A DNA stretch of 39,600 bases from a virus (IMGVR_UViG_3300013383_000010), one strand, 5' to 3'; positions 1,691 through 22,965 are shown, numbered from the stretch's first letter. Notes: generated by a model from the sequence alone, not told the origin. Made by a program: numbers and translations.

Positions 1691-2209
1691 ATGAACGAAA
1701 TGGACGCGCTGAAAAACCGCTGGAGAGAGGCCAAGGGCACACGCACCTTCCCGGACATCGCCGAAGCCGCCGATCTGTCGCCGAGCACCGTGGAATATGC
1801 CTTTTCTTCAAAATCCACGAACCCCAGCTTTGATACGGTCGTGCGCATCTCCCGGGAGCTGCACGTCTCGCTGGATGAGACGTTCGGCATTCTCTCCCCG
1901 AGCGATCGCGCGGAGTCGGAGCTTGCCCGGCAGGACGCCGCCCACTGGAAGGCGCGGTACGAAGCGTCCGTCCGGGACATCGAATATCTCCGCACGGTCA
2001 TTCTGATGCTCGGTGCGTTCTTCCTCGTTCTGGTCGTCTGGTGCGTCACCATGGATCTTCGCTGCACGGAAGTCGGCTTCTTCCGCGGCGAGTGGAACTT
2101 CGCCGCGGTGTTCTCGATGTTCTGCGCCGCGATCGCCGCGCTGATGGTCGTCCTCGTCGTCGTCCGCGTCTGCCGCCGCCACCGGCAGCGCAAAGGAGAA
2201 AAGGAATGA
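1691..2209 (+). CDS. Membrane-anchored HTH protein (N-terminal XRE-like HTH, two C-terminal TM helices)
   Basis: SD AAAGGACGGAG precedes ATG 1691. HTH segment FPDIAEAADLSPSTVEYAFSSKSTNPSFDTVVRISRELHVSLDETF. Hydrophobic segments ILMLGAFFLVLVVWCV and AAVFSMFCAAIAALMVVLVVV. The stop overlaps the integrase ATG (ATGA). Confidence 0.65.
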   Translation: MNEMDALKNRWREAKGTRTFPDIAEAADLSPSTVEYAFSSKSTNPSFDTVVRISRELHVSLDETFGILSPSDRAESELARQDAAHWKARYEASVRDIEYLRTVILMLGAFFLVLVVWCVTMDLRCTEVGFFRGEWNFAAVFSMFCAAIAALMVVLVVVRVCRRHRQRKGEKE

Positions 2210-3354
2210 AGTGCTGCAACTGTTCCCGCGAGATCCCGGAAAATTCTTTGTATTGCAACTGGTGCGGAAAGAAACAGCTCCGGGAGAAGGAAAAGAAGCT
2301 CAAGATCCCCGCTCCCCGGCAGCTCCCCTCCGGCAGCTGGACGGTGCAGCTCCGCCGCGAGGGCGTGAACGTCACCGAGCCGACGGAAGAGGCGTGCCGC
2401 ACCAAAGCCCTCGCCATCCGCGCCGGGTTTCTGGAAGCAGAGAGCGCGCTCCCCCGGCTCACGCTCGGCATTCTTCTCGATAAGTATCTGGAAGACCGCC
2501 CCATGCTTTCGCCGTCCACCAGGCGAAGTTACCAATGCATCCGAAACAGCGCTTTTCCCGGCTGTATGGATAAGGATATCCGCTCTATAAACTGGCCGCG
2601 CGCCGTTGCGGCAGAGTCGCAGCGCGTTGCAAAGAAAACCCTGAAGAATGAGCTCGGCTTTGTTGCCGCCGCCTACAAGGAGCAGAAGATACCGTTTGAC
2701 CCCGTGGATCTCGGCGTCGTCCCAAAGGCCGATACTCCGTGGCTGGACTATGCGCAGATACTAACCTTCGTTGACGCGATCCGCGACACGCCCGTCGAGC
2801 TTCCTGCGCTCCTTGCGCTGCACTCTCTCCGCCGCTCGGAGATCTTCGCGCTCCGTCCGGAGGATATCGACCCCAAAGCCGAAACGATTTCCGTCTCCGG
2901 CGCCACGGTCTATACATCCTCTGCCGAATGGATACGCCGGGACGAGAACAAGAGTGCCCGCTCGCAGCGCGTCGTTCCCATCGTGATACCCCGGCTTTTG
3001 GAAATTCTCAAAGACCACGACGGCGATATATGCCCGCTCGGCGACGGCGTGCGTCGGCAGATCAACCGGATCTGTGCCGCAAACGGTTTGCCGGAGGTCG
3101 GCCTGCATGGTCTGCGCCGCAGCTTTGCTTCCCTCGCCTATCATCTCGGATGGTCGGAAGAAGAGACCATGCGGCACGGCGGCTGGAGCGATTGGAAAAC
3201 CGTCCACGATTTTTATCTCCGGCTTTCCGAAAAAGATTTGTCCAAAGCCGCGAAAAAAATGCGGCGGTTCTATTCCGTTAGTAAATCCGTTAGTAAAAAA
3301 GGGTCTAAAAACGCTCAAAAACGTACATCGACCCCGCCGACCGGCACAGAATAA
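2206..3354 (+). CDS. int: Tyrosine recombinase / phage integrase with N-terminal zinc ribbon
   Basis: 382 aa. CCNC...CNWC zinc ribbon. Catalytic-type motifs LHSLRRSE, HGLRRSFAS, HGGW and a terminal Y in VHDFYLRL. Adjacent to attP-like features. Confidence 0.9.
   Translation: MKCCNCSREIPENSLYCNWCGKKQLREKEKKLKIPAPRQLPSGSWTVQLRREGVNVTEPTEEACRTKALAIRAGFLEAESALPRLTLGILLDKYLEDRPMLSPSTRRSYQCIRNSAFPGCMDKDIRSINWPRAVAAESQRVAKKTLKNELGFVAAAYKEQKIPFDPVDLGVVPKADTPWLDYAQILTFVDAIRDTPVELPALLALHSLRRSEIFALRPEDIDPKAETISVSGATVYTSSAEWIRRDENKSARSQRVVPIVIPRLLEILKDHDGDICPLGDGVRRQINRICAANGLPEVGLHGLRRSFASLAYHLGWSEEETMRHGGWSDWKTVHDFYLRLSEKDLSKAAKKMRRFYSVSKSVSKKGSKNAQKRTSTPPTGTE
3274..3297 (+). repeat. Tandem arm-type repeat TCCGTTAGTAAA x2 (inside the int 3' end)
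   Basis: Perfect 12-nt tandem duplication encoding SVSKSVSK. The same CGTTAGTAAA core recurs at 3508..3517. Confidence 0.6.
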
Positions 3355-3517: not shown

Positions 3518-3523
3518 ATCGCA

Positions 3524-3557
3524 AAAAACAGAGCCGCTACATGCGGCTCTGTTTTTT
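3524..3557. terminator. Bidirectional rho-independent terminator
   Basis: AAAAAAC-AGAGCCGC-tacat-GCGGCTCT-GTTTTTT, with A and T tracts on both sides. Confidence 0.75.
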
Positions 3558-3581
3558 ATCTCCCGTCATAGAGTCCGAGCT

Positions 3582-4074: not shown

Positions 4075-4272
4075 ATGGCAACAACCAAGGCGCAGCAGAA
4101 GGCAGTAAATAAATACATGGCCTCGAATTATGATCGAATCAATCTCACCGTCCCCAAAGGCGCAAAGGAAACCATCAAATCCCACGCAGAGAGCCGCGGG
4201 GAGAGCGTGAACGGCTTTATCAACCGGGCGATCAACGAGACCATCGAGCGCGACAAACAGGACAGGGAATGA
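4075..4272 (+). CDS. Ribbon-helix-helix (Arc/CopG-like) DNA-binding protein
   Basis: 65 aa. The pattern YDRINLTVPKGAKETIKSHAESRGESVNGFINRAINE is a beta strand followed by two helices. SD AAAGGTGG is present. Confidence 0.6.
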   Translation: MATTKAQQKAVNKYMASNYDRINLTVPKGAKETIKSHAESRGESVNGFINRAINETIERDKQDRE

Positions 4273-4290
4273 CCCCTGTCCTGTTTTCGT
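4257..4290 (+). terminator. Rho-independent terminator (convergent with the giant gene)
   Basis: Perfect 11-bp stem ACAGGACAGGG / CCCTGTCCTGT, stop codon in the loop, followed by TTTCGTTTC. Confidence 0.75.
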
Positions 4291-4293
4291 TTC

Positions 4294-7200
4294 TCACTTC
4301 ACACTCGGCAGCTTCCCGTACTTGAGGAAGTAGTCGATCGGGCTTCCTTCCTCAACATACAGCGTCCGGTTTCCCGCTTTGATCGCCCTTTTCTTGGCCT
4401 GCGTCACAGCCTTGCGGATGTCCGTCCCGCTCGACTTCTGCGTGAAGTCCGCGATCACATTTCCGCTCGTCTTCGCCGTTTTGGAAGACGGCGCAAGCGC
4501 ATTCCCGCTCGTTTTCGCCGTGCTCCCTGTCTTCGCGGAAGCCTCCGGGATGACGATCTTCCCGGCCTTCGGCGTCGGGGCCTTGAGCGTCGTCTTCCTG
4601 CTGCTCCCGCGGCGGCTTCCGGAGCCGCCCGAGCCGCCGTTCCACTTCTGGTACTTTGCGCTCTTCTCGGTGTATCCGGCGGCAACGTAAAGAGCGTCCT
4701 TCTGCTCGGCGGGAATGTCGAGACTGTTGATGTACTCCACGACCTTCGCCTTCTTGGAGCCGGAAATGCTCTTGCCGTTCTCGTCCTTGTCGGCATGCAT
4801 CTCCTTCGTGGCAAAGTAGTAGTCGTAGTAGGTCTCATAGGAAACGCCTTTTGCATACGCGGTGCGGGCTTTGTCGTACACGTCCGCGTTGTAGGTGCGC
4901 AGTGCATACTCCGCGCCGAACACCTCGCGGTTACATTCGCGGTATACGATGGCGTCCATGCGGCTCTCCGCCTGGTCCTCGGTGATGTCGTAGAGTTCGG
5001 CATACTCGGCGATGGCCGCGTCGTTGTCGGTCGCAAGCTCCGGGTGCGCCTTGAGGTATTTGTCCACCGCCTCGCGGTACGGCTCGGCTTTCGCGATGAT
5101 CTCCTTCTGCCGCTCGATGAGCTGCTTCTTCAGCGCGCGGACGAGCCGGTTCTTTTCGCCGTCGGAAAGGTTCTTGTCGTTCTGAAGAGCGCGGATCTGC
5201 GCGTAATAGTCGTTCACCTCGTCGCCGGCACGGGAGACGTATTTCCGCGTGATGCCCGCTCCGACGTCGCCGTCGTTCGCGTCGTACTTGAGATCATCCA
5301 GAAGGTCGTAGTACTCGCCGGTGGTCTTGTTGGTGCTCGTCGTGTCGATGGTGAACGCCGCCATGGGCGCCGACAGCAGCTTGCTTGCCGCGTTTGTTGC
5401 CGGTGTCATCAGCGGCAGCAGGATGTCGCCGAAAATGCCGGTGTACTGGTCGAGAAGATAGTTGATCTTCTTCGGCGACAGGTTGAACGTTTTTCCGATC
5501 AGCTTGGAGAGCTCGTCCGTTTTCTCGTCGTACCGATCTCCCGGACGGTAGTTTTGCAGACGGTCGCTCTCGATGTTCCCGCCGTACCACGTCGTGCCGG
5601 GGTTGTCGGGATTGAAGAGCTTTGTCTGCGTGAACGCCGTGGCGATGTTCTGGTTGAAGATATCCGTGGGCGCGATGTTGCTCTTGATGACCTCGAACAC
5701 GTCGGAGAATTTCACATCTTCGCCCTCGATCTTCTCCTTCCCGTATACCGCGAGCGTTCCCAGCACCGCAGCGGCGCGGCCCTTCGGGATCTTGACCCAG
5801 TACCCACTGCCGAAAAACTTCTCCGGGAGTTTGATGAGGTAGTAGTTTGACTTCGTATTGGCCGGGATATCGTCCCACTCGTCATCGTCCCACCACATCA
5901 GTTCGTTGAGTATCTGCGGCAGGATGCCCCAGAGCGCTGCGCTCAGTATCAGCTTTCCGGCGGCCTGTACACTGCGGACCCCCGTGGCGTTTCGGATGAA
6001 TTTGTCAAAGCCCTGCACGGAGGGGTTGAGGAACGGCACGAGATACCGGTTGAGCATCTTGGTAACGCTGCCGCCGCGGGCAAAGTTCGTCGTGATGTCC
6101 GCCGCACCGAGCATCGCCTCCATGAGATCGTTCTGTGTGAACTTGCCGTCCTTGCTCCCGCCGCTGTTGGCGAGGATGGTCATAAACTCCGCAAGACGCG
6201 GAGCCGCTTCCACCTGCTGCTGCAAAAGCTCGAACCTTGCCCACAATTTCCCCAGTTTGTTTTTCGGTTCCTTCACCATGCCGGTCGTGTAGTCCAGCAT
6301 GGAGGAATAAGAACCTCCCAGCGCCTTGTACTGCTGCCAGATCTCTCCGTTCTTCCGGATCTGTCTCTTTGCCTGCGGGAACATTTTCAGCCACGTTTTC
6401 ATGTCCGTGGAATAGAATCCGGCGTCCTGGAAGTCCCGCACGGCGTTTTTGATGAGAAACCACGGAGACCATGCAGTATTCATTGCTTTGAATACATCGT
6501 TCAGCTTCTTCATTGCCTTTGCCGCGCCGTAGTTTGCGAACTTGTCCGGCTCAAAGGCCTTCATCGCCGCGGTGAGCCCCTCGTCCATCGTGATGTCGTA
6601 GGCTTTGCCGTTCTCCTTCACGGAGAAGATGTTCTCGAATACCGGTCTGTAGTCCTCGTCGCTCTCAAGCGCGGCCTCCGTCGGCGTGTACTCGCTCTCG
6701 GCAACGTCCCAGATGTACTTCTCCGTCGCTTTCTTGTTGCCGTCATACTCGCGCACCAGCGCAAGGCCGAACTGGTTAAGACCGGCGTTCCGCATCGTGG
6801 ATACCGTTTTGCGGGATAGCGCCGTGTGCAGCGGCAGAAGCACGCCGTCGCTGCCGACAGCCCGCCCGATGGCGTTCGATACGACGATCCCGCCGTTCCG
6901 CCGGGCGCTTCGGGCTTTCTTGCTGCTCGTCCCTTCCTCGCGGAATGTGGGGATGTAGTGCGGATACCGCTTTTTCAGTGCGTCGGCAAACTCCCGCGTG
7001 ATGAGCCCAGCCTCCACGCGGTAGCGGATGAGATCGTCCGAGTACTTGTAGACTTCCTTCGCCCACTCCTTGAACTCCGGGTTCTTCGCTGCAAGGAGCA
7101 TAGCCGCCGTCTGGGAATCGTCCGCCGTCACGTCGTATCCGAACACCGGCTTCAAACCCTGCTTTTCCACAATGGCCCGCTGCCGTTCCAGCTCCAGCGC

Positions 7201-10200
7201 GTAGGCCGCGCCCTCCGCTACGGACGTAAGGCTCGGCGCCTCGCCGTTGTGCGCCGCGAGATAGATCTCGTGCGCCGCCTGGCGTACGACCGGTGAATCG
7301 CTGTCGCTGTTTGCGATCCGGCGCAGCTCTTCCTTTGACAGTTCCTTGAGCTGCGGGTATTTTTCTTTTACCCAGCGGAGATTTTCCTTGATCCGCTCCA
7401 GTTCGGCGCTGTTGTCGTACTTCATGCGGTCCACGTTGTGCATGTGCAGAAGATAGAGCTGAAAATCGCGGTACTTTGTCTCATTCTTCCGCATCGGGGC
7501 AAGGGTATCCGCAAGGCTCGCGCCGATCCTGTGGCCGTCGATGTCGGTACGCGCGCCGCCCTTGGCGATCCAGTTTCCCGCCCGCTGGGAGTACGCCCCG
7601 GCATTGAAGTAGTATCCCTCAAGACTTTTGCTTCCCGTAGCCTTGGCGATCCGGCGCACCGTGTCCCCGGCATTGACGAACATCCGCATGGCCCCGCTCG
7701 TGATTTTCTCAAAGTCCTCGCGGTAATTCCGCTCGGCCTTTATGACCTCGGACGTGACCTTTTCCGTCGTGGCGGCGATCGTCTCTTTTGCCGCCGCGTT
7801 TTCCGTCTCCGCGGCGTCGCTGCTCTCCCGGGACGTCTCCGCGTTGTCGGGCTGTTCGGGATCTCCGAACAGCTCGGCGATCCTCGCATCCTCGTCCGCG
7901 GTTTTCTCGGCTTCGAATTTCTTGGCGCGCTGGTAGTTCTCCTCCGAGAAATTCTTGTTGGCCATCGTGATAACTTGCTCCGCCGCGTCTCTTGCCGCCG
8001 TCTCCTTCAGCGCCCGGACAAGTGTGTCTGCCTTGTGGCCGTCGTGGAAGATCGTTGCCTCGAAGTATTTGCCGATCGGCGTTTGCTTCACCTCGACCTT
8101 GAAAGTGGAATCCTTCGGCGTTCCCTTGAGGAATCCGGTCATCTGCACCTTCACCTCGGACTTGCCCTTGCCCATAAGATCCCGGTATACCTCGCCGGAG
8201 CTTTTGTTCGGCACGAATCGCTGTCCCGCCCCGCGGTTCTCCCTGGCGCGGATCCGCTCCGTTTCCCGTCGGTCTGCCTCCTGCAATTTGCGCAGCCGTT
8301 CCCGCCGTGCATCCTCTTCACTTACTTCGGTTTTCCGGTTTTCCACCTCTACGCTCGCTTTGCCGGAAGAAGCCTTCTGAATCACTCCTCCGAGCTCGCT
8401 TAATTTTTTCCCTGTAATCTTGACACCGTCTTCGGCATATGCTATATTGCCGATAGAGCCATACGGTGGTTGGCGTGACGGGAATTGTACCCTGAGCTGC
8501 ATCAACCATGTATTGGCTCTATTTTTGTTTGTGTCAAGGTACAGCAGTTCGGAGTTATTGATAAGATTCCGCAGATTTTCATCCGCTCTTCCGTAGGCGC
8601 TCGTCACAAGGGAAAATTCAGCTTCCGTTCTTCCGCCCGGCTTGGGTGTGAGCTCCAGCGCCACCATTAGGCTGTTGCCGTTTTTTGCCTTCTCCTCGCT
8701 CAGCAGTACGATGCTGTCCGGTCGGGTAAGAGACTTCATAATCAGTACCGGGTTTTCAAGGATACTCGGAACCTTTTTGATGACATCAACATTCACTTCT
8801 GGATGATCTTCAAAGATCGTCCCGATTTTACTCTTCCGCATGTAGATGTTATCCGTTCTCGCGCCGATGCTTTGCAGCGCCTCGGAAGTTGTTCCAGCGC
8901 GGAAATAGCCTGGAGAAGTGCTCAGCATGTCCGTCGGCGTATTTCTCACCCAGTCATCCACGTTCTTTCCGAAGTTCTCATCGATGCTATAGCTCGTCGC
9001 ATTCCCATCCGCAAACACGGTATCCGCGTCGCCCAGATTGGGCGGCGTATTTTTTCGCTCTTCGGCGGTCATCCGACGGCGGGAGGCGGTGTCTCTCGCT
9101 TCGATCTCTCCGGCGGTGTTGCGGTAGAACTCGTTCACCGCCTCGCCCGCGTCGCCGAGAATGCGGTCGTACCGGTTCAGCTTTCCGAACCATTCCTTGC
9201 CGTAGAGTTGCTTGTACAGCTCGTCCGAGCGCTTCTCCAGCGCGTCCATGCGGCTTTCGTCGTAGAGCATGGAGCCGTCGAACATTGCCCCCATCTCGCG
9301 TTCGGTGCTGCGGTACTCGTCATAAAGCGCCCGATCCTCGGTGCTCAATCCGTTGAGAAGCCGTGCGCGGTTGTCGCGGTACTTTTCCGCTGCTCTGTCG
9401 TAGTTCTCCCCGCGGTTCCAGTAGCCGGGGTTCGTCCCGCTCGCAAATCCCTCCGCCGCCTGCACCCGGTGCTGTACCTCGTGCATGAGAACATCGAGCG
9501 CCTCGTTCGCGTCGTATTTGAGCTTTGCGTCAATGGTGATCGTGTTCGTCTCGCGGCTGTAGCTGCCCGCTGTACCGTTCGGCATATAGGCGAACTTCAC
9601 CTTGGTTTCCGCGATCTCGGGGTACGCCTCGAAAAGGGCGTTGTGCTGCATGATGTCCCGCAGTGTCGCGTCCCCCTCGTCGATACGGCGCGCCAGCTCT
9701 TTTTTTGTGCCGCCGTGCTTCTTGTCCAGCCCCAGCAGTTCGGCGTGCTCCGCCTCGGTGAGATTACCTGTGAGCATGCGGTTCATCAGCTGCGTATAGC
9801 GCGCATAGTCCGCATTGTCGGTGCTGTACTGTGCCTCGCCGTTCCGACTGAAGGTCGCGTCTCCATCGTCGATCTCAAACCGCCACTGGCCATCCATGCC
9901 GCGGTACCAGCCCGTTTCCTGCCGGATGGTCTCGTTGTCCGTCCCGCTCTGCTCCATTGCTTCCGCGCGGCGCAGCGCCTCCCGGTCTGCGGTCCCGGCT
10001 CGAATGCCCGCTACGCTCGCCCTGCCGGAAGATTTTTCTTGACTATTTCCCTCCGTCTGGCGTATAGTAGCCGTAGAAGAGGATTTCTCCTGTTGAGCGC
10101 CGGTTTCGGTAACGGAATCGGAAGAGCCGTGCTTTCTGGCGGGGGACGTCCTCTTCTCCATTTTCCCCACGTTATACACGACCACGCCATTATTCCCGTC

Positions 10201-13200
10201 TGCAATAGATATCGTTACCTTGTAGTACTGCCCATCAAAGTCTTGGAACCACGCCTCACGGTACAGCCAGCCGTTTTCCGCAAACTTCCCGTGAATCGGG
10301 CGTCCGTCTGTTGAAGTCTCATCCGGTCTGGCGTTTTTGTTGACCCGCTCGGACACCTTTGCGAGCTCGTCTATATGCGCCTCGGCGTTCAGCTTCGTCT
10401 CGTATTCCGAATCGGTCATCGGACGGCGGCGTCCGCTCTCGTCCGTCACATAGTTCCGGAAGCTTGCCTTTCCGGCGGTATCCTTCGTGATCTTTAGCAC
10501 GTCCCCGGAATCCGTCGTGAGTATCACGTCCTCGCCGTTGCGGATCTTCCGGTTGATGTATCCTTCGATCTGGTCGGCCCAGCTGCTCGGGTCATTCCCG
10601 AAGATTACCTGCCGGTCGGCCTGTACATACTTCTTGCCGTCCGGAAGAACCACAATGCTCGCCCGGCCGGAAGATTTTTCTTGACTATTTCCCTCTGTCT
10701 GGCGTATAGTAGCCGTAGAAGAGGATTTCTCCTGTCGAGCGCCGGTTTCGGTAACGGAATCGGAAGAGCCGCGTTTTTTGGTGGGAGAGGTTCTCTTCTC
10801 TATTTTTCCCACGTTGTACACAACGACCCCGTTGTTTCCGTCAGCAGTGGATATCGTCACTCGGTAGTATTGTCCGTCAAAATCAGAAAACCACGCCGTT
10901 CGATAATACCAGCCGTTTTTTGCAAGCTCACCGTGAATCGGTTTCCCGTTTGTTCCAATTTCGTCCGCTGCTGGTTTTTGATTATTCTTTTCAGAGATTT
11001 GTGCCAGCTCGTCAATATGCGCTTCGGCGTTCAGCTTCGCCTCATATTCCGTGTCCGACATTCTTCGCATTGTCCCGTTTTCGCCGGGAACATAGTTCCT
11101 GAAGCTCGCCTTCCCGGCGGTATCCTTCGTAATCTTCAGCACATCACCGGAATCTGTCGTGAGGATCACATCTTCGCCGTTGCGTATCTTCCGGTTGATG
11201 TATCCTTCGATCTGGTCGGCCCAGCTGCCCGGGTCATTCCCGAAGATCACCTGTCGGTCAGCCTGTACATACTTCTTGCCGTCCGGGAGCGTCACAATGC
11301 TTGCGCGTCCTTCCGGCGGCCCCGTCGTCTCCTGCTGCGCCTCTGCCCTCTGGGCAGGGGCGTTTCTTTCTGTCTCGGCGCGCACGGCCGCCTGTACCGG
11401 CGCTTCGCCGGAGAACCAGTTCAGCCCCGCGTAAGCGTCCGCCGCGATCTCCTCGGTGAGCAGCCGCTCGATCTCGTCCACGCTCATATTTGCGAAATCG
11501 TAGACCCCTGCGTAGTCCGCTTTATAGGCATCCCGCATGGCGTCGTATTCCTCGGCGGTCATGCTCTCGCGGATCACCTCATCTGTCGCGCGGATAACTT
11601 CCTCGGATGCATAGTTGTGGAACAGCTCGTGCTGCACCAGCATCTCCGGGCTGATGACATTTCCTGCGCTGTCCGCGGCGTCCACGCGGAAGAACACCCT
11701 CCCGCTCTCGGTATAGGCGTTCGCGTAGCCGTTTGAGATCTGGATCGCCCCGCGCACCGCTACCGGCTCAAGCCCGGTCTCCCGCACCGCGTCGTAGGCG
11801 CTCTTTGCCTCGCCGCCGAGCTTCTGCGCATCCACGACGGTCACGGTCTCCGTGCCGCCGTCCCGAATGCCGAGCTGCGCCGGCGTTACTTGCCGTAGAT
11901 CCGCCTGCGCGTCCGTTCCCACGCCTCGTTGAACTTCCGTTCGGCCTCCGGCGAGAGCTTGTAGCCCTCCTTCGGCGCCTTCCGCAGCTTGTCCGCGGGA
12001 ACCGACATAAGCAGCCCCGCTTTCTTCCCGGTGATAAGAACTCTGTCCATTGTTCATTCCCTCCTGAATATTGATCGCCGCCGCGGGCGTCGTGCTGATC
12101 CCTTCGTTTTGCGCCCTCTGCGCGCCCACAGGCGCGTTTTGCGCCCCGGTGGTATAAGTACCCTCCTGCATACGCGAAATACGCTCCTGCGCTCCTACAT
12201 CCCCGCGCAGCGCTCTTTGCATCTCGCGGATCATCTGCATGTGCTCGCGCGCTTCCTGCGCCGCGGTCTGCTGCTGCGTTTCCAGCGCACCGAGCTCCGT
12301 GCCGGCGTCTATGATCTTCTCGCGTGTCTCGCTGTTGAAAAGGCCGTTCTCCTTCATGGAGGCGCGCGCCTCTTCGATCTTCGCGTTGACGGTCTCGTTG
12401 GCGTAGCTCTCGTTCTGCGCCCGGAACCGCCCGTTCACAGCGCCGTCGATGCCGGAGAGAAATCCTCCGGAGATCGCACCGGCGAGATAGCTTTCCCACA
12501 GTCCCCGGATCGTCACGTCATCCATCCAGTTTTCGCCGAGCGTTTTGCCGTTATAGATGCTCTTGGCAAACGGGGAAACGAGGTCCGAGGCGACCTCTTC
12601 CAGACCCTCGCCGTTCATCTGTCCAAGCAGCGTCAGTACGGTGCGCATCGTCTTGCTGCTCGTGAGCGTTCCGATGAGCGCCTTGGTAAACTGCTCCTTC
12701 GGCAGATATTTCCCGGCGGCTTTGATCGTCAGCTTGTTCGCCATATCTCCGGCGGCTTCCGTTGCTGCCTCGATGGAGCCGATCACCGTGCCGTAGGTCA
12801 GCGCTTTGTCCCAGCTTGCGCCGTCTTCCAGCGCTTCCTCGATCGCCGCGCCGGACGCCTGGTTGAAGAAGAGAAAGCTCTGGAACGCCTCGCCGCCCTT
12901 TTCGCCCAGAAGCGCCGTGCCGATGAGCCGCCCGGCCATCGGGAGCGCCTGGTTGCCCACGCTTTCGGCAATACTCATGGCCTGCTGCCACTTGGGGCCG
13001 AGATCGGCGTATCTCTGGTCCACTCTCTCCTGATATGTGTTGTCGCGCTGGAAGGCGGTCTTCACGCCCTCTTTGTCGAGACGCTCGTATCCTTTTTCGG
13101 CGGCGCGCTGCATGGCTCTCGCTCTGTCGTTTTTGAGATCCGCGACGCCCATATACTCGTCGAGATCCTTCTGCTGCTGTGTGCGGGTGTCCGCCGGGAT

Positions 13201-13623
13201 CTCTACGCCGGTTTTCCGCCCCGTGGTCTGCTCCCACATGGCCTTGTAGTAGGCGTCGTCCGCCGCATTGAGCGGATTTGCCGCCTGTGCGCGGTACCCC
13301 GCCTCGTTCAAGCCGGTGCGCAGACCTTCCTTTGCGCCCGCTGCGGCCTTTTCAAAGATGCCCGCGATGCCGTGGAAAAAGTTGTTGTTCGTCCCGCTCT
13401 TTATCTGCGCCGCAGCGTCGGCGTATGGCGTCTGCATGGTGCTCTGGCCCTGCGAGGCTTTCAGAGCGTTTGTATACAGGAGCTGGCTATCCGCGTTTCC
13501 GCCTTTTTTGCTTTCAAGCAGCGCGTCCACGTAGCTCACCGGCTTTTCTCCGGAAGCACTTCCGGAGGAAGCCGTTCGGCTTCCTCCGGTTTTCTTTTTC
13601 AGAAGATCGTCTAATGCGTTCAT
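4294..13623 (-). CDS. Giant 3,109-aa multidomain (polyvalent-type) protein, probably packaged in the virion and ejected
   Basis: Uninterrupted ORF. SD ACGGAGGAAAAA precedes ATG 13623 (the track start at 13683 lacks an SD). HELFH at 11617..11631 and HEVQH at 9469..9483. Tandem 214-aa modules. A MuF-C-like segment at about 8440..8900. It follows the portal and the 435-aa gene. Confidence 0.85.
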   Translation of the reverse strand: MNALDDLLKKKTGGSRTASSGSASGEKPVSYVDALLESKKGGNADSQLLYTNALKASQGQSTMQTPYADAAAQIKSGTNNNFFHGIAGIFEKAAAGAKEGLRTGLNEAGYRAQAANPLNAADDAYYKAMWEQTTGRKTGVEIPADTRTQQQKDLDEYMGVADLKNDRARAMQRAAEKGYERLDKEGVKTAFQRDNTYQERVDQRYADLGPKWQQAMSIAESVGNQALPMAGRLIGTALLGEKGGEAFQSFLFFNQASGAAIEEALEDGASWDKALTYGTVIGSIEAATEAAGDMANKLTIKAAGKYLPKEQFTKALIGTLTSSKTMRTVLTLLGQMNGEGLEEVASDLVSPFAKSIYNGKTLGENWMDDVTIRGLWESYLAGAISGGFLSGIDGAVNGRFRAQNESYANETVNAKIEEARASMKENGLFNSETREKIIDAGTELGALETQQQTAAQEAREHMQMIREMQRALRGDVGAQERISRMQEGTYTTGAQNAPVGAQRAQNEGISTTPAAAINIQEGMNNGQSSYHREESGAAYVGSRGQAAEGAEGGLQALAGGRTEVQRGVGTDAQADLRQVTPAQLGIRDGGTETVTVVDAQKLGGEAKSAYDAVRETGLEPVAVRGAIQISNGYANAYTESGRVFFRVDAADSAGNVISPEMLVQHELFHNYASEEVIRATDEVIRESMTAEEYDAMRDAYKADYAGVYDFANMSVDEIERLLTEEIAADAYAGLNWFSGEAPVQAAVRAETERNAPAQRAEAQQETTGPPEGRASIVTLPDGKKYVQADRQVIFGNDPGSWADQIEGYINRKIRNGEDVILTTDSGDVLKITKDTAGKASFRNYVPGENGTMRRMSDTEYEAKLNAEAHIDELAQISEKNNQKPAADEIGTNGKPIHGELAKNGWYYRTAWFSDFDGQYYRVTISTADGNNGVVVYNVGKIEKRTSPTKKRGSSDSVTETGARQEKSSSTATIRQTEGNSQEKSSGRASIVVLPDGKKYVQADRQVIFGNDPSSWADQIEGYINRKIRNGEDVILTTDSGDVLKITKDTAGKASFRNYVTDESGRRRPMTDSEYETKLNAEAHIDELAKVSERVNKNARPDETSTDGRPIHGKFAENGWLYREAWFQDFDGQYYKVTISIADGNNGVVVYNVGKMEKRTSPARKHGSSDSVTETGAQQEKSSSTATIRQTEGNSQEKSSGRASVAGIRAGTADREALRRAEAMEQSGTDNETIRQETGWYRGMDGQWRFEIDDGDATFSRNGEAQYSTDNADYARYTQLMNRMLTGNLTEAEHAELLGLDKKHGGTKKELARRIDEGDATLRDIMQHNALFEAYPEIAETKVKFAYMPNGTAGSYSRETNTITIDAKLKYDANEALDVLMHEVQHRVQAAEGFASGTNPGYWNRGENYDRAAEKYRDNRARLLNGLSTEDRALYDEYRSTEREMGAMFDGSMLYDESRMDALEKRSDELYKQLYGKEWFGKLNRYDRILGDAGEAVNEFYRNTAGEIEARDTASRRRMTAEERKNTPPNLGDADTVFADGNATSYSIDENFGKNVDDWVRNTPTDMLSTSPGYFRAGTTSEALQSIGARTDNIYMRKSKIGTIFEDHPEVNVDVIKKVPSILENPVLIMKSLTRPDSIVLLSEEKAKNGNSLMVALELTPKPGGRTEAEFSLVTSAYGRADENLRNLINNSELLYLDTNKNRANTWLMQLRVQFPSRQPPYGSIGNIAYAEDGVKITGKKLSELGGVIQKASSGKASVEVENRKTEVSEEDARRERLRKLQEADRRETERIRARENRGAGQRFVPNKSSGEVYRDLMGKGKSEVKVQMTGFLKGTPKDSTFKVEVKQTPIGKYFEATIFHDGHKADTLVRALKETAARDAAEQVITMANKNFSEENYQRAKKFEAEKTADEDARIAELFGDPEQPDNAETSRESSDAAETENAAAKETIAATTEKVTSEVIKAERNYREDFEKITSGAMRMFVNAGDTVRRIAKATGSKSLEGYYFNAGAYSQRAGNWIAKGGARTDIDGHRIGASLADTLAPMRKNETKYRDFQLYLLHMHNVDRMKYDNSAELERIKENLRWVKEKYPQLKELSKEELRRIANSDSDSPVVRQAAHEIYLAAHNGEAPSLTSVAEGAAYALELERQRAIVEKQGLKPVFGYDVTADDSQTAAMLLAAKNPEFKEWAKEVYKYSDDLIRYRVEAGLITREFADALKKRYPHYIPTFREEGTSSKKARSARRNGGIVVSNAIGRAVGSDGVLLPLHTALSRKTVSTMRNAGLNQFGLALVREYDGNKKATEKYIWDVAESEYTPTEAALESDEDYRPVFENIFSVKENGKAYDITMDEGLTAAMKAFEPDKFANYGAAKAMKKLNDVFKAMNTAWSPWFLIKNAVRDFQDAGFYSTDMKTWLKMFPQAKRQIRKNGEIWQQYKALGGSYSSMLDYTTGMVKEPKNKLGKLWARFELLQQQVEAAPRLAEFMTILANSGGSKDGKFTQNDLMEAMLGAADITTNFARGGSVTKMLNRYLVPFLNPSVQGFDKFIRNATGVRSVQAAGKLILSAALWGILPQILNELMWWDDDEWDDIPANTKSNYYLIKLPEKFFGSGYWVKIPKGRAAAVLGTLAVYGKEKIEGEDVKFSDVFEVIKSNIAPTDIFNQNIATAFTQTKLFNPDNPGTTWYGGNIESDRLQNYRPGDRYDEKTDELSKLIGKTFNLSPKKINYLLDQYTGIFGDILLPLMTPATNAASKLLSAPMAAFTIDTTSTNKTTGEYYDLLDDLKYDANDGDVGAGITRKYVSRAGDEVNDYYAQIRALQNDKNLSDGEKNRLVRALKKQLIERQKEIIAKAEPYREAVDKYLKAHPELATDNDAAIAEYAELYDITEDQAESRMDAIVYRECNREVFGAEYALRTYNADVYDKARTAYAKGVSYETYYDYYFATKEMHADKDENGKSISGSKKAKVVEYINSLDIPAEQKDALYVAAGYTEKSAKYQKWNGGSGGSGSRRGSSRKTTLKAPTPKAGKIVIPEASAKTGSTAKTSGNALAPSSKTAKTSGNVIADFTQKSSGTDIRKAVTQAKKRAIKAGNRTLYVEEGSPIDYFLKYGKLPSVK
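10027..11310 (-). repeat. In-frame tandem duplication, 2 x 642 bp (2 x 214 aa), inside the giant gene
   Basis: Copy 1 is 10669..11310 and copy 2 is 10027..10668. Each begins GRASIV(T/V)LPDGKKYVQADRQ and ends TIRQTEGNSQEKSS. A third GRAS starts at 10026. Confidence 0.95.
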
Positions 13624-13645
13624 TTTTTCCTCCGTTTTTGAGGTT

Positions 13646-14953
13646 TCAGATGTACTGTTTTCTGTACTGATTGAAAGAATCAAGTGACGGGTTTTTATCT
13701 CCGATCGTCGGCGCTATTCTCTTCGCATAATTTGCATATAGCATTACGTCGCCCGCTTGGTCTTCCGTCAGAGACTTATTCACCGTGGCCTCTTTCGCCA
13801 GCGCCGCCTGGATTTCCGCGAGCGTCGCTCCGTTTGCCAGAAGAGCATTCACTTTGTCGTAATACGATGCTATGTCCTTCCCACGGCCGCTCCCGCTGCT
13901 GCCGCTGGATCCGCCGTAACTTCCGGATCCTCCGCTCGACCCGGCCGCCGTCTCCGACGCCTTGACGTATCCGAGCGCCTGCGCCATCTCCGGATTGGCG
14001 GCGATCCACGCCTTTTGCATCGCGTCGATCTGGCTCTGCGAGTAGCCGAGATCGAGATAGCCGGAAAAGTCGCCGTACTGCGCCATGTTCTGCGCCTTCG
14101 TCGCGGCGTCCTGCTGCTGCTGAAGAATGAGATTCATCATGTTGGCGTAGAGATTCTGCTGCGCTTCCGCATTTGCCTGGTCCCGCGCGGCGTTTGCCTG
14201 ATACTCGGCGTCCGCGCCCTGCTGCCGCAGCTGCATAATGGCGGCGATGCGCGCAGCCTCGTTCTCGTTCAGCCGCTCTCCATAGGCCGTGTCCAGCCCC
14301 AGCCGGGCGGACTCGCTCATGCCGCCGCTGTAGCCTCTCGCGGCCATCTCCTGCGGCAGCACGCGCAGGGATTCCATGTAGTCCCGGTAGAGCTGCTTGT
14401 TGAGACTGCCGTACTGGTCGCCCAGCTCGCCGATCCCCTGTTCCACCTGCGCGAGAGCGCGCTCCGCCGCGGCCTTGGCGGCGTCGTTGTTTGCTTTTAC
14501 TGCGTCGTCGTACATCTTCTGGTACTGGTCCTTGAGATCGTCCAGATACGTTCTCTGCGGCTCCGTCGGTGTTTCGCTCGGCGTCTCTTCCGTCGTGCCT
14601 TCCGTCGTTCCTTTCTGTGCGTTGCCGTCGTTGTCGATGTACGTCACCCTGTCCCTGCCGGTCGAGGGCGTGCTCGGCTGCTGATTGGAATTTGATGGCG
14701 GCGTGTTCTTTTTCGTCTCCATGTTTTTCGCGACCGTTTCAATGGTATCCTGCGAAAACCCGCCCGGAGGCTCCGAGCCCGGCAGAAGGAGACCGAAGCC
14801 GTCGCGGTGATATCCCGGCGGAGTGTATGTACCGTTTTTGATCGCGTCGGTATAGTCCTTGCTGTAACCGTTCTTCTGTGTTCCTCCGCTGGACGGCATC
14901 TGCCCGGTCGTTCCGGATCCATTGTCCCACATATACGGCGTTTTACTTGCCAT
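13646..14953 (-). CDS. 435-aa virion-associated protein of unknown function (Gly/Ser/Thr/Pro-rich N-terminus, Gln/Ala-rich helical core)
   Basis: SD GGAGGAAAGAAGA precedes the ATG. Lies between the portal/Zn-ribbon genes and the giant gene. No recognisable catalytic motif. Confidence 0.7.
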   Translation of the reverse strand: MASKTPYMWDNGSGTTGQMPSSGGTQKNGYSKDYTDAIKNGTYTPPGYHRDGFGLLLPGSEPPGGFSQDTIETVAKNMETKKNTPPSNSNQQPSTPSTGRDRVTYIDNDGNAQKGTTEGTTEETPSETPTEPQRTYLDDLKDQYQKMYDDAVKANNDAAKAAAERALAQVEQGIGELGDQYGSLNKQLYRDYMESLRVLPQEMAARGYSGGMSESARLGLDTAYGERLNENEAARIAAIMQLRQQGADAEYQANAARDQANAEAQQNLYANMMNLILQQQQDAATKAQNMAQYGDFSGYLDLGYSQSQIDAMQKAWIAANPEMAQALGYVKASETAAGSSGGSGSYGGSSGSSGSGRGKDIASYYDKVNALLANGATLAEIQAALAKEATVNKSLTEDQAGDVMLYANYAKRIAPTIGDKNPSLDSFNQYRKQYI

Positions 14954-15053
14954 TCTTCTTTCCTCCCTGATAGCGAACGCACTTCGGGTTGCGGCACTCC
15001 CATTCCGCTGCGTTCTTCTTCGTCATCTCAATGCCGCATTTCGGGCACTTCAT
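14943..15053 (-). CDS. 36-aa zinc-ribbon peptide (MKCPKCGIEMTKKNAAEWECRNPKCVRYQGGKKNGK)
   Basis: ATGA overlap with the portal stop. Two CxxC pairs. Overlaps the start of the next gene by 11 nt. Confidence 0.5.
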   Translation of the reverse strand: MKCPKCGIEMTKKNAAEWECRNPKCVRYQGGKKNGK

Positions 15054-16882
15054 ACCGGCGCACCTCCCAGCAGCGGGAGCGTCTGCGCCCCCGGTATTCC
15101 GCTCTCCTGGCTCCCTTGTGCAAAGGGAGCTGTCGCCGCAGGCGACTGAGGGATTGTCGCGCCGAATCTCCGCTGCCATTCGTCGATGATCTCCTGCTTA
15201 CCCGGCAGATTGATGAGATCCAGCTGCGCGGCAAAGAGCTTCCAGTTCTCCGCCGTCACCTGGCTCTGCGTGAGCGCCTGCAGCGTCTGGAGCGTCTGCG
15301 CCTTGCCGTGGGCGATGCTGTCGCCCGCCGTGATCGTCACGTCCACGCGCGGGAAGTACTTCCACTCCTCCCGCACAACGTTCCCGGCCTTGTCCGTCAC
15401 AGCCGGCATGGTGTCCCAGAAGTTGTCGGCGTTGAACTGCATCGTCTGCGCCGCGCGGTCCTTCGTCTCGTCCGCGCCGATGAACAGCATCCGGTCATCG
15501 TCGAAAAATTCCAGCGCCAGCCAGTCGAGCAGCTCATAGAGCCGCTCGAACCCGGCGTTGCGGTCCGCGCCCTTGATGTCCGCCTGGCTCTGCGCGTCCT
15601 GCCGCATCATGGCAAGGCCGGTCGCCGTCGTAACGCGGCTCGCTTCCTTGCCGGTGTTGGTGTCGTAGTTTCTTGACGCCCGCTCGATCTGCTGCTTGAA
15701 GAAATCCACGCCCATCGAACCGTTTGCGATGCTCTGCAATCCGCCGAGCCGCTGCACGCCGCCCATGCGCCCCTGCTTGAGATGCACCACAGCTCCCGGC
15801 TCATTGGTGAATTCCTCGCCGTCCGCGAGCGCGCTGTCCTCCACGAGAAGAATGTCATTGGCGAGGAACGTGTCGTTCAGAATGTTCATGGCGAGCTTCC
15901 GGTCGGCAGCGTCCACGAGATCAAGGACCGGCATAAGCTCGCTCCTGTTCCAGAATCGGTTCTCGTCCTGTATGCGCCAGTAGTGCGCGAACGGGAAGAG
16001 CTGGTTCTGTTTGCACGTCCTCTTCCAGTAGTTCGGGATGTACTTCAGCTCCCGCCCTCCCGCGAGGATCGAGCACGCCACCGCCCCGGCAGGGATCGTC
16101 TCGCCGTCCTCCGTCGTTTCGACCGGCTGCCGGAACCAATGCTCGAGCACCTGCACCGTGTCGTCCAGATCGTTCACCGCCGTCGTGAGATCGAATACGC
16201 CGGTGCGGGAAACGTAGTCCGCCGTGAGGATATCGTCCGCCGTGAGACCCAGCTTCTCCAGCTCGCGGCGGAACACCTGGCAGAACTTCACCCGGTGCAT
16301 CGTGTACACATAGTCCACATACTGCCCGTCCTGCAAGCCGCCGTCGCGGATGGCGGGATCCGGGAAGATCGCCTCCGTGGGGATATCCTTGATCCGGATA
16401 TCCCCCTCGTTTACGCCGCAGCGCATGTCCTTGTCCCAGTACGCCTTCCAGAAGGCGTCCCCGAGTTTCAGCAATCTTCGTTCGTTGCGCGTGTTCATAT
16501 CGGCGAGACGGTTGTTCTCCGTGATGTAGCGCACGGCAAATTCGCGCTGCTTCGCCTTCTGGCTGTCGAGATCGTTGTCTCGGCCCCGAAACTCCGGCTC
16601 CGGTACCGTCGGATCGATCTGGCTTTCCACAAGGATGTACGGATCCGGCATGTTCGCCGGGATCCACGGCACATCGTTTGCGCGGCAGTATTCGATCATC
16701 TCCTTCGAGGCGTCATGGATTCCGTTGTAGTAGTCGTTGCACCGCTCCCACTCGATCTCCACGGCGGTGCGGGCGTTCTTCGCTCGGCGGAAGAGCGCGT
16801 CCGCCGTCTCTTCACGCATCTCGGGTGTGGAATAGTCGTACCCGACGATCGCCCGCTCGCCGGTCTGTTTCTTCTTTCTCAT
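15050..16882 (-). CDS. Portal protein
   Basis: 610 aa. The N-terminal pattern (WERCNDYYNG.H, PDPYILVESQID, LGDAFWKAYWD, IKDIPTEAIFPDP, GQYVDYVYTM) resembles SPP1-gp6-type portals. The size is typical. Confidence 0.65.
   Translation of the reverse strand: MRKKKQTGERAIVGYDYSTPEMREETADALFRRAKNARTAVEIEWERCNDYYNGIHDASKEMIEYCRANDVPWIPANMPDPYILVESQIDPTVPEPEFRGRDNDLDSQKAKQREFAVRYITENNRLADMNTRNERRLLKLGDAFWKAYWDKDMRCGVNEGDIRIKDIPTEAIFPDPAIRDGGLQDGQYVDYVYTMHRVKFCQVFRRELEKLGLTADDILTADYVSRTGVFDLTTAVNDLDDTVQVLEHWFRQPVETTEDGETIPAGAVACSILAGGRELKYIPNYWKRTCKQNQLFPFAHYWRIQDENRFWNRSELMPVLDLVDAADRKLAMNILNDTFLANDILLVEDSALADGEEFTNEPGAVVHLKQGRMGGVQRLGGLQSIANGSMGVDFFKQQIERASRNYDTNTGKEASRVTTATGLAMMRQDAQSQADIKGADRNAGFERLYELLDWLALEFFDDDRMLFIGADETKDRAAQTMQFNADNFWDTMPAVTDKAGNVVREEWKYFPRVDVTITAGDSIAHGKAQTLQTLQALTQSQVTAENWKLFAAQLDLINLPGKQEIIDEWQRRFGATIPQSPAATAPFAQGSQESGIPGAQTLPLLGGAPV
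15109..15157. repeat. Double-hairpin element, copy A (inside the portal 3' end)
   Basis: GGCTCCCTTGTGCAAAGGGAGCTGTCGCCGCAGGCGACTGAGGGATTGT. Hairpins at 15111..15129 and 15132..15146. Second copy at 31474..31524. Confidence 0.85.
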
Positions 16883-17892
16883 TTCCGCCGCTCCGCGTCG
16901 ATCTCGTTGACGCGCTTCTGGACGGCATCGTATTTGTCACCGAGCTTCTGTTTGCGCACCGTTCCGTTGCCGTAGTCGCCGCGGATGACAGCGTAGGCAA
17001 GAGCGTCGATCTCGGCTGCGGTCAGCTCATCGGACGTCGGCGGCGTGGTCGGCTCGCCCGTGCCCTGCTTGGCGAGAAGCTCATTGACGCGCTTCTGGAC
17101 TGCTTCGTAGTCATAGCCCGCAGCCTCAAGGCGCTGCTTGCGCTCTCCGCCGTTGCCCCATTTGCCGGTAAGCACTTCCTGCGCCAGCTCGTCAACGGTC
17201 GGCTTTACCGGGGTCTCCGGCTCCACCGGCGCGGCAGTTTTTCCGCACAGCTTGTCCCAGCCCGCGCGGTCGATGTAGGCCAGGTTAAGGTCAAGGCGGC
17301 GGGGATAGCCGTCAAGAAAGCCCATGGAGGTGTACTGGCGGATGGTGATGTTCTCGCCCCACGGTCCTACTTTTTTGTTTCCGGGCGGATCGGCGAGGTA
17401 GCCGCGCACCGGGGTGTAGCCTTTCTTGTAGTTTTTGTCGGTCGAGATCGCGTACTGCGCCACCCAGAGAGGGTGATTCTTAGCAACCTCGGCCCACACC
17501 TTAGAGTTGGCCGTGCCCTTGCTCATGTAGATCATGGCGCGGATGCCGGTCTTTTCGTAAACGTAGTCCAGCCAGCGCTTGGCCCAATCGGAGCCGAGCT
17601 TCACGGCCTTCGCTTCCCAGTCAAGCGCAAGGACGATCTTGCCGAGGTAAGGCTCGACTACGCTCAGAAAATGCTGCGCTTCTCTCTCCGGTGTCGTGCC
17701 GGTGAAGCCGTCCAGCGCGAAGTGATAAGCGCCTACGCACTTACCCTCCGAAAGCGCCTGTTCGATCTGCCGTTTGAAGTCCGGGGAAACGTATCCCGTG
17801 CCGCCCGTGGCTTTGCAGATGACAAAGTCACAGGGGACTTTGGTGAGGTCGATTCCTCTCTGGTGGTCTGCGATGTCAATGCCGTTCATCAT
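16879..17892 (-). CDS. Endolysin: GH25 muramidase with two C-terminal Cpl-7 (CW_7) cell-wall-binding repeats
   Basis: SD AAGGAGG precedes ATGATG 17892. GIDIADHQRGIDLTKV...FVICKATGGTGYVSP...GAYHF is the GH25 pattern. Repeats GKWGNGGERKQRLEAAGYDYEAVQKRVNELL and GDYGNGTVRKQKLGDKYDAVQKRVNEI. Confidence 0.85.
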   Translation of the reverse strand: MMNGIDIADHQRGIDLTKVPCDFVICKATGGTGYVSPDFKRQIEQALSEGKCVGAYHFALDGFTGTTPEREAQHFLSVVEPYLGKIVLALDWEAKAVKLGSDWAKRWLDYVYEKTGIRAMIYMSKGTANSKVWAEVAKNHPLWVAQYAISTDKNYKKGYTPVRGYLADPPGNKKVGPWGENITIRQYTSMGFLDGYPRRLDLNLAYIDRAGWDKLCGKTAAPVEPETPVKPTVDELAQEVLTGKWGNGGERKQRLEAAGYDYEAVQKRVNELLAKQGTGEPTTPPTSDELTAAEIDALAYAVIRGDYGNGTVRKQKLGDKYDAVQKRVNEIDAERRK

Positions 17893-17906
17893 TTTTCTGT
17901 TCCTCC

Positions 17907-19442: not shown

Positions 19443-19777
19443 TATGTGACCTCCTTGAGGATCTCAAACGTTGCCGGCGGGATGACGGTGTAAACATCCC
19501 CCTCCGCCGTCGTGAGCTGCACGTCGTATATATACCTGCCGAACGCCAGCGCCTTTGTGTTCTCCGGTTTGATGTGGAACGCTTCCCCGCCGGGTACGCG
19601 GATCTGCACGGCGGGCGATGTATCCATCACCGTTTTCTTGACGGTCAGAGTAACCTCGTCCTCCTCCGTGAATACGTATTCCTTCCCTGTGACTGCGTTC
19701 GTCGCACGGTCAATAAACAGCCGCGCCGTGTCGCCGCGCGTCAGATGGATGGTGTTGTCTTTGTCTACTGTGAGCAC
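19442..19777 (-). CDS. Small beta-rich tail-associated protein (~111 aa)
   Basis: Only the distal part of track ORF 19442..20275 looks coding. GTG 19777 overlaps the upstream stop (TAGTG), with GGGGGAG 10 nt upstream. TAATG coupling to the fibre gene. The start is uncertain (alternative GTG 19786). Confidence 0.5.
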   Translation of the reverse strand: MLTVDKDNTIHLTRGDTARLFIDRATNAVTGKEYVFTEEDEVTLTVKKTVMDTSPAVQIRVPGGEAFHIKPENTKALAFGRYIYDVQLTTAEGDVYTVIPPATFEILKEVT

Positions 19778-20280: not shown

Positions 20281-20290
20281 TTAATTCACC

Positions 20291-21094: not shown

Positions 21095-21102
21095 TTTTCT
21101 CT

Positions 21103-22962: not shown

Positions 22963-22965
22963 GGC

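Follow-up and report, generated by a model that had tools for sequence, protein, structure and literature searches.

What does a 3,109-residue protein do at the end of the late genes of a small temperate phage? The question is raised by a gene at 4294..13623 (minus strand, stop codon at 4294..4296) of the viral stretch IMGVR_UViG_3300013383_000010, which was analysed over its full length of 39,600 nucleotides (nt) and is called the window below. A reading made without database searches (the sequence-only reading) had placed the product among the polyvalent proteins and had suggested that it is packed in the capsid and ejected. Arguing by analogy, we consider it probable that the product, which belongs to a temperate and podovirus-like phage of ~39.6 kb from gut Oscillospiraceae, is a capsid-packed, ejected polyvalent protein made up of a carrier and its cargo. 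The observations on which we build this view are the domain content of the protein, the synteny of its gene, the mosaic of its cassettes and the nucleotide conservation of the linker that joins them.

The open reading frame (ORF) is genuine and complete. The longest mechanical ORF on the minus strand spans 4294..13683 with a TTG start (3,129 amino acids, aa); the ATG at 13623, which has GGAGGA 6 nt ahead of it, opens 3,109 codons without an internal stop. These 9,330 of 39,600 bases (23.6%) agree with the claim that a single ORF fills about a quarter of the genome. Seven clusters of 3,109-aa proteins (99–100% identity) come from separate contigs of 31.7–41.1 kb deposited at JGI, ENA and NCBI, and because the same product is found on seven independent contigs the ORF is not an assembly chimera, a concern that the sequence-only reading had itself raised. 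A variant with a single copy of a 214-aa module described below is exactly 214 aa shorter, on a contig ~700 bp shorter, and public metagenomes hold ~1,000 homologues of 2,400–3,500 aa. The protein contains 1 Cys and 27 His, 4 of the latter inside two HExxH motifs.

Three domains of the giant protein score above their curated Pfam cut-offs, namely LPD23 (E 1e-20), MuF_C (E 5e-22) and LPD38 (E 4e-22), and two HExxH domains accompany them (expected number of HExxH motifs, 0.019 per protein; two or more in 0.02% of 5,000 shuffles). This content bears out the assignment to the phage-type polyvalent proteins, which were defined, together with their mosaicism, by Iyer et al. 2017.

Comparison of 121 family members revealed how these domains are distributed. 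All features of the gene given below lie on the minus strand. Both ends are constant, the N part measuring 772–873 aa (with zincin-like domain 1 at its end) and the C part no less than 1,331 aa, and they enclose between zero and four cassettes. The 214-aa module is absent from 82 members, single in 28 and double in 11, the architecture in the window being the minority form (11/121), while the slots of relatives hold four types of LPD3 cassette, a second type of MuF_C and two unknown types. The cassettes of the window gene are AT-richer than its carrier: the guanine-cytosine (GC) content, ~0.60 elsewhere, falls to 0.487 at 8494..8793, the AT-richest stretch of the gene, over MuF_C, and to 0.507 at 10594..11193, over the 214-aa modules. 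Judged from the sequences, this swapping, duplication and loss of cassettes between near-identical phages is the behaviour of accessory, conflict-driven cargo and not that of a machine part.

The cassettes are joined by a linker of the form '...SSTATIRQTEGNSQEKSSG(R/K)AS(V/I)...', with shorter forms at the first and last junctions. Its core occurs in the window as IRQTEGNSQEKSSGRA (copy 1, aa 973–988, 10660..10707) and again at aa 1187–1202 (copy 2, 10018..10065), and relatives have alternative cassettes joined at a second junction, RRRMTAEERKNTPPNLGDADTVFADG (aa 1515–1540, 9004..9081). From one junction to another the 51-nt linker core keeps 88–100% nucleotide identity even where the flanks share no more than 27–67%, whether the junctions compared lie in the same genome or in two genomes with proteins ~70% identical, and it is plausible from the sequences that cassettes are exchanged through this patch of homology. 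The junction motif [KR][FY]S[ILV] was found 84 times in 75 more distant giants, against 19±4 in shuffles and 6 for the reversed motif. Part of this excess is homologous, since 25 of the 105 sites of the form [KR][FYA]S[ILV] are starts of homologous 214-aa modules (80 remain), and the enrichment is suggestive of a cleavage site but not proof of one. Three other contigs (P0141, P0144 and P0155) carry ORFs of 118–176 aa in which linker is fused to linker along with module tails ('...VVYNVGKMEKK...GNGQEKSSGRAS...'), one of them on a 580-kb contig; these may be decayed remnants of cassette arrays or the result of assembly collapse at the repeated linker.

The array of the window begins with two tandem 214-aa modules, as had been noticed beforehand. 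The tandem repeat has a period of 642 nt over 9995..11310, with 82–88% nucleotide identity, and was missed by Tandem Repeats Finder because that period exceeds the limit of the program. Copy 1 (aa 772–985, 10669..11310) and copy 2 (aa 986–1199, 10027..10668) belong to a widespread family without a Pfam model. Their N halves and linkers are 90–100% identical in nucleotides and their C halves, for which copy 2 has another allele, only 50–80%; the copies are therefore two joined alleles and not a fresh duplication. Copy 2 occurs alone in a relative (P0008). Several polar residues are near-invariant (ADRQ, TAGK, H-I-D-E-L, YR, D.D, the Ser of 'TIS', and N), a set typical of an enzyme, which makes an enzymatic function of the module probable on sequence grounds; its variable half perhaps sets the target specificity. 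A Foldseek search of BFVD with the module returned two small viral proteins annotated as LPD3 (E 1e-4 and 2e-3, template modelling (TM) score 0.39–0.42). LPD3 itself (PF18798) gave no Pfam match in the window copies or in distant members, and hhalign against the LPD3 cassettes of relatives gave a probability below 1%, with nothing significant for MuF_C or the others (the templates being shallow). Since the sole fold lead is modest (LPD3, TM ~0.4) and hhalign did not confirm it, we leave the module unnamed, and the likeness of its C-terminal half to nuclease-like/LPD modules, suggested by the sequence-only reading, stays tentative.

The next cassette (9034..10026) combines LPD23 (aa 1203–1258, 9850..10017) with a second zincin-like peptidase, whose HEVQH lies at 9469..9483 (aa 1381) and is followed downstream by '...GEIEARD'. 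The second metallopeptidase-like module of the sequence-only reading is thus a DUF6782-like cassette: the match to DUF6782 (PF20573, a putative metallopeptidase family) stays under the cut-off here (E 5e-5, 23.1 bits against 27) and is on record for many close relatives, and this second HExxH is present in 108 of the 121 members. The peptidase may be a processing enzyme or an effector. The last cassette (aa 1557–1753, 8365..8955) is MuF_C of the PBECR type, a predicted RNase. The AT-rich patch had been likened to the MuF C-terminal domain, rightly so: PF18819 matches at aa 1605–1702 (8518..8811; 82.8 bits against a cut-off of 27.6, profile positions 7–102 of 103), overlapped weakly by PBECR3 (E 0.006–0.04). 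By eye, the candidate residues are the H in EDHPEV (aa 1605–1610) and the T/S in LVTSAYGR (aa 1672–1679).

The N-terminal side of the carrier starts with a family-conserved region that exists as two alleles (aa 1–560, 11944..13623), is Gly/Ala-rich, contains an EGLEEVASD motif and has no family match. It leads into zincin-like domain 1 (aa 588–760, 11344..11862), with HELFH at 11617..11631 (aa 665). This first HExxH is invariant (121/121 family members and 23/23 distant representatives) and stands exactly 101 residues ahead of the first cassette junction in 121/121. A downstream 'EE(I/L)xADAYAG' helix is usually kept; the window form, 'EEIAADAYAG', carries Glu. AlphaFold modelling of aa 585–985 from 53 diverse sequences reached a predicted local distance difference test (pLDDT) score of 83.5 (~90 in domain 1). 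In model numbering, domain 1 has a helix at 20–31, strands within 35–62, a helix at 75–87 with HELFH and a helix at 131–148 with EEIAAD, the topology that Iyer et al. 2017 describe for zincin-like metallopeptidases (MPTases). The predicted model thus has the zincin-like MPTase layout, an HExxH helix after a small β-sheet and a later Glu helix, in keeping with the zincin-like motif claimed beforehand.

Database searches showed the two domains of this region to be widespread. Against 1.84 billion representative proteins, aa 560–985 matched 740 clusters at 50% identity (257 at E ≤ 1e-30), mostly proteins of 2,000–3,900 aa in which the 214-aa module often directly adjoins domain 1. Neither domain has a Pfam model, even in distant members, and the Pfam matches of domain 1 were at chance level (E 0.09–0.5 to M13, DUF5700 and eCIS_core). 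The giant protein had no NCBIfam match; Foldseek of the aa 585–985 model against the PDB found nothing significant (best E 0.25); and phmmer of the whole protein and a hidden Markov model of alignment A2 against PDB sequences gave nothing or poly-Q artefacts. By tblastn, aa 585–985 matched none of 72,556 plasmids, and of aa 1–1779 nothing but the LPD23-peptidase and MuF_C had counterparts among 50,697 phage records. Foldseek hints to a contact-dependent inhibition (CDI) toxin complex (6cp9), NTF2-like folds and metalloproteinases were insignificant and were not used.

The C part (aa 1754–3109, 4297..8364), which we regard as the chassis, is ~86% identical across the family. The sequence-only reading had found no motif in these ~1,300 residues, which in fact hold LPD38 (aa 2580–2744, 5392..5886) and a match to phrog_14770, and are the conserved core of the family; the hydrophobic segment that it had seen there is real (AAGKLILSAALWGILPQILNELM, aa 2554–2576, 5896..5964, helix-like, mean Kyte-Doolittle 1.48), the only one in the protein, and just ahead of LPD38. 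A core at aa 2110–2834 (5122..7296) is common to other podovirus giants, as found by BLASTP, tblastn and phrog_14770. It aligns colinearly with Bacillus phage Page gp20 (BLASTP, E 1e-14 over 800 columns); MuF_C and then the core are colinear in Stx2-86 gp35 (E 4e-8 and 1e-10), and PTXU04 gp25 matches aa ~2327–2736 by tblastn. LPD38 is near the C end in all three, and in the window protein too it follows a colinear helical core and lies within ~100–400 residues of the C end. Every phage relative of the C core in the records examined is short-tailed. An AlphaFold model of aa 1960–3109 (22 closely related sequences) was mostly helical and, at pLDDT 40, unusable; a BFVD search with it returned only LPD38 homologues at TM ~0.1 and insignificant tape-measure matches. 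A reading as a virion RNA polymerase was considered for 'KYDANDGD', which is among the most conserved stretches, and was rejected: its residues do not make up a DxDxD triad, and Page gp20 does not share the stretch.

The gene neighbourhood is that of a phage late operon, and the position after the portal, a zinc-ribbon peptide and a 435-aa protein, all on the same strand, is as first described. On the minus strand, in the direction of transcription, a replication initiator, the large terminase, unknown genes, a virion structural protein, tail-fibre-like proteins and an endolysin (GH25 + CW_7) are followed by a P22-like portal (15050..16882; PF16510, E 3e-11; phrog_156, E 4e-26) that stands two genes upstream of the giant gene. 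Between them are a 36-aa zinc-ribbon ORF with CxxC...CxxxxC (MKCPKCG...CRNPKC..., 14943..15053, minus), which overlaps the portal stop by 4 nt, and a 435-aa low-complexity/coiled-coil protein directly upstream of the giant gene (13646..14953, minus), with a low-complexity N part, a Q/A-rich helical middle, a Gly/Ser linker and no Pfam or NCBIfam match. A gap of 22 nt separates its stop from the giant ATG. In relatives a gene of 438–656 aa always lies between portal and giant gene, and relative L005 also keeps the 36-aa gene between the portal and a 438-aa gene; for the 435-aa protein, a role as scaffold or as another internal/ejection protein is possible. The late genes end with the giant gene, which is followed by a convergent tyrosine integrase (2041..3354, plus; phrog_1, E 2e-38; PF00589 at threshold), and an HTH (helix-turn-helix) repressor-like gene also lies beyond it. 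A hairpin with a 13-bp perfect stem at 4255..4286, 8 nt past the giant stop, is a candidate late-operon terminator (consensus scan only, strand unassigned). On the minus strand, at 3522..3558, the same scan gave another strong hairpin of terminator type.

The large terminase, TerL, lies at 28239..30329 (minus). L005, whose C part is 86% identical, sits as a prophage in a bacterial contig of 119 kb and has its giant gene close to the prophage end, and a distant lineage (L008) has the order lysin, portal, 656 aa, 3,079-aa giant, integrase. No tape-measure, tail tube, sheath or chaperone signature was found among the ORFs scanned. The integrated relative, the conserved order and the lack of a long-tail signature together indicate a temperate phage of short-tailed type, and thus two further elements of the sequence-only reading, temperateness and the missing tape measure, held up. 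The host is probably a member of the Oscillospiraceae: a 39.4-kb relative was binned with Oscillibacter sp. ER4, source names include 'Firmicutes' and 'Oscillospiraceae', and the GC content is ~60%.

Several other features of the neighbourhood deserve mention. The terminase is ~11 kb from the portal (16879..30329, minus), an unusual order, and adjoins a gene for replication initiation (PHROG 3584 type, rolling-circle-related; 30589..31386, minus); large ORFs at 33959..35569 and 32982..34010 match only PHROGs of unknown function. The endolysin (GH25 with two CW_7 repeats) sits between the tail-fibre-like genes and the portal. As listed, its ORF overlaps an upstream 511-aa ORF by 127 nt and its profile match begins at aa 45, so that the true start is probably later. 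The C-terminal tail of the portal, TIPQSPAATAPFAQGSQ (15050..15170), has the peptide TIPQS(P/A)A(A/P)TAPFAQGS in common with the N part (~aa 530–560) of the giants of several relatives (P0025, P0015, P0043 and P0051 were compared), the window's own giant protein being without it; the peptide could serve for docking or cleavage in both proteins, or be the scar of a recombination.

The sequence of events that we propose starts from phi24B gp47, which mass spectrometry found in abundance in virions, which the cryo-EM map does not show, and which its authors propose to be an encapsidated ejection protein (bioRxiv 10.64898/2026.04.10.717836). By analogy with it we infer packaging in the capsid and ejection for the window protein; cleavage, self-processing and the activity of each cassette are proposed in addition. 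Synthesis of the protein would be late, along with that of the portal and tail proteins; it would then enter the capsid and be expelled via portal and tail ahead of or with the DNA. The carrier, comprising the constant N part (aa 1–770), which ends in the zincin-like HExxH domain, and the constant, mostly helical C part with its one hydrophobic segment and LPD38, would be the essential part and would help the genome to cross the envelope. The exchangeable cassettes between them (here two 214-aa alleles, LPD23 with a zincin-like peptidase, and the MuF_C/PBECR-type predicted RNase) would be cargo that, once freed at the conserved linkers, probably by the built-in peptidases, turns on RNA, proteins or defence systems of the host during the first minutes in its cytoplasm. 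Iyer et al. 2017 proposed that MPTase domains process polyvalent proteins, and here domain 1, from its motif and position, is the best candidate for cutting the cargo free.

A more specific version of this scheme is possible, and we put it forward tentatively and with considerable doubt. The giant would be a plug-and-play chassis in which the 51-nt linker is at once the homology patch for cassette swaps and, as the peptide SSG(R/K)AS(V/I), the site cut by domain 1 after injection, with domain 1 and the 214-aa module being two new gut-phage-specific families (740 clusters) at the entry of the array. It would draw on the conservation of the linker DNA even at synonymous sites between unrelated junctions, and on the (K/R)(F/Y)S(I/L/V) junction motif of the distant giants, enriched about four-fold.

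The alternatives differ in whether the protein enters the virion and in what its cassettes are for. The whole chain might be a structural ejection or internal-core protein that serves genome delivery by penetrating the envelope, forming a channel or pulling the DNA, its cassettes being spacers, wall-degrading or assembly domains. Such a role would suit the need of PTXU04 for its LPD38-bearing relative in efficient infection, the view of the phi24B authors that gp47 forms a conduit and that its peptidase degrades the wall (bioRxiv 10.64898/2026.04.10.717836), the share of the carrier (two thirds of the protein, and its conserved part) and the existence of members nearly devoid of cassettes (0–1 architecture; 2,372-aa forms). 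We nevertheless think it unlikely, given that cassettes are exchanged, duplicated and lost between near-identical phages, that MuF_C belongs to the PBECR predicted-RNase clade, with no obvious role in crossing an envelope, and that Pfam finds no peptidoglycan hydrolase domain in the giant protein. The exchange of cassettes in the manner of polymorphic toxins, their deviant GC content and the location of the gene at the very end of the prophage, by the integrase or the host junction, would also agree with a moron-like gene whose product is never packaged, a late or prophage-expressed cytoplasmic giant toxin, superinfection-exclusion or defence factor. That is quite improbable: the 22-nt gap to the preceding late gene, with a ribosome-binding site, leaves no room for a promoter region of its own, the portal / X / giant synteny is conserved across lineages, LPD38 and MuF_C have virion-associated contexts in the literature, and the counterpart in Stx phages is physically in virions.

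Two further explanations can be given little weight. The length of the protein, its mostly helical nature and its Gly/Ala-rich segments recall a tape-measure-like or tail-fibre protein of a long-tailed phage, and the poor model of the C part weakly matches BFVD tape-measure models (E 0.03–0.4, TM ~0.07). These matches are insignificant and come from a pLDDT 40 model, however, and the missing tape-measure Pfam or PHROG match, the P22-like portal, the ORFs scanned, which hold no tail tube, sheath or chaperone genes, and the short-tailed relatives of the C core in the records examined render this explanation very improbable. Finally, an assembly artefact or fused pseudogene might be suspected, because a 642-nt tandem repeat and repeated linkers can mislead short-read assemblers and small linker-linker fusion ORFs occur on other contigs; with the same 3,109-aa product on seven independent contigs, a one-copy variant shorter by exactly one module on a correspondingly shorter contig, repeat copies that differ by 12–18% and are thus resolvable, and ~1,000 homologues of similar length, it can practically be dismissed.

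Against the reading of the giant as an ejected carrier with cargo stand several points of its own. The phage and its close relatives are known from sequence alone, and no isolate is close (megablast against the 50,697 phage records gave no match). Similarity to proteins with experimental data, as far as the alignments go, is remote (21–29% identity) and does not extend beyond a portion of the C region. All Pfam peptidase models stay under their cut-offs on the giant protein, and MPTase-PolyVal (PF18818) had no match. The conservation of the linker could be explained by recent recombination alone, without cleavage. The periplasm-spanning model of phi24B is not directly transferable, because the host envelope is presumably of Gram-positive type (GH25 + CW_7 lysin), and the pLDDT 40 model of the C part gives no picture of a conduit.

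How new is this protein? The sequence-only reading had called the domain combination, and its presence in a small temperate phage, undescribed. The combination is indeed new; a giant in a small temperate phage is known from the Stx podoviruses, with a 2,783–2,811-aa MuF_C + LPD38 protein in virions. The assignment to the polyvalent class is therefore supported and the claim of novelty overstated, as the polyvalent concept and its mosaicism date from 2017 and podovirus LPD38 giants already come with virion and infection data. What is new is the lineage (uncultured gut-Firmicute temperate phages, with the ~1,000 homologues) and its particular domain set, two widespread, unmodelled domain families absent from the 50,697 phage and 72,556 plasmid records, and a clear-cut division into carrier and cargo joined by a linker conserved in its nucleotides. 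Of all phage molecules, polyvalent proteins are believed to act first in a newly infected cell, and almost none has been studied. The giant protein represents a large uncultured clade of ~39-kb temperate gut Oscillospiraceae phages, in which the split between constant carrier and exchangeable cargo lets candidate early effectors and counter-defence enzymes be listed directly from the genomes. With the conserved linker there is a definite place at which both the exchange of cassettes and their proteolytic release can be tested, and domain databases could gain two entries, domain 1 and the 214-aa module.

Among known systems, in the polyvalent class of Iyer et al., which includes the mosaic jhp1044 family of Helicobacter prophages, several unrelated domains (LPD, MuF-C/PBECR and HExxH peptidase) share one polypeptide, as in the window; the genes adjoin virion genes, and domains are widely duplicated and rearranged between orthologues, as in the window family. 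The domain set of the window protein is different and includes two domains without a Pfam model, and its fixed N/C carrier and nucleotide-conserved linker were not found in the sections read of that account. The N4 virion RNA polymerase and P1 DdrB/DarB are very large proteins that are loaded into the capsid and injected, as is proposed for the window protein, and have a zincin-like domain implicated in processing or encapsidation; in contrast to these giants, no RNA polymerase, helicase or methylase domain was matched in the window protein, and no sequence similarity was found. The MuF polymorphic toxins (cited in PMC9206674) are head-associated carriers with variable toxin ends that belong to temperate gut-Firmicute phages and are common in gut prophages. 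They join an N-terminal Phage_Mu_F head domain to one C-terminal toxin, whereas the window protein has only an internal MuF-C (PBECR) on an unrelated carrier. Pseudomonas phage 8P (L010, MT152150.1 26390..41827) encodes a 5,145-aa 'structural protein' with a similarly placed LPD23-type module, and genes for holin, lysozyme and an integrase come after it; this is another temperate phage with a giant polyvalent-like last late gene. Our search found no literature on this phage.

Close parallels are also offered by the LPD38 giants of other podoviruses. PTXU04 gp25 (2,197 aa, Escherichia) has LPD38 near the C end and is needed for efficient infection, knock-down of PTXU04_00025 having impaired it (bioRxiv 10.1101/2023.09.18.558157); it differs in belonging to a lytic phage, in having no other recognizable domain and in its low identity (~23%). 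Page gp20 (1,679 aa, Pagevirus, with relatives in Pony, Palmer and Pascal) comes from a ~40-kb Firmicute podovirus, carries LPD38 and gives the longest colinear alignment with the C core of the window, and its gene closes the structural block, ahead of the lysis genes; the protein is half as long, lacks a cassette array, is annotated as hypothetical and is 21% identical. The giants of the Stx podoviruses (phi24B gp47, 2,811 aa; Stx2-converting phage 86 gp35, 2,783 aa) are ~29% identical to the window protein over two short stretches only, carry LPD5 and LPD1 where the latter has the HExxH-1 domain, the 214-aa modules and the LPD23-peptidase, and belong to phages of Gram-negative hosts with a 60-kb genome, for which no conserved linker or cassette swapping is reported. 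Like the window phage, however, these phages are temperate and short-tailed; the giant is a single polypeptide encoded by the last late gene, directly before the integrase, as is the window gene, and in Stx gp35, as in the window protein, MuF_C is followed, in the same order, by the LPD38-bearing C core.

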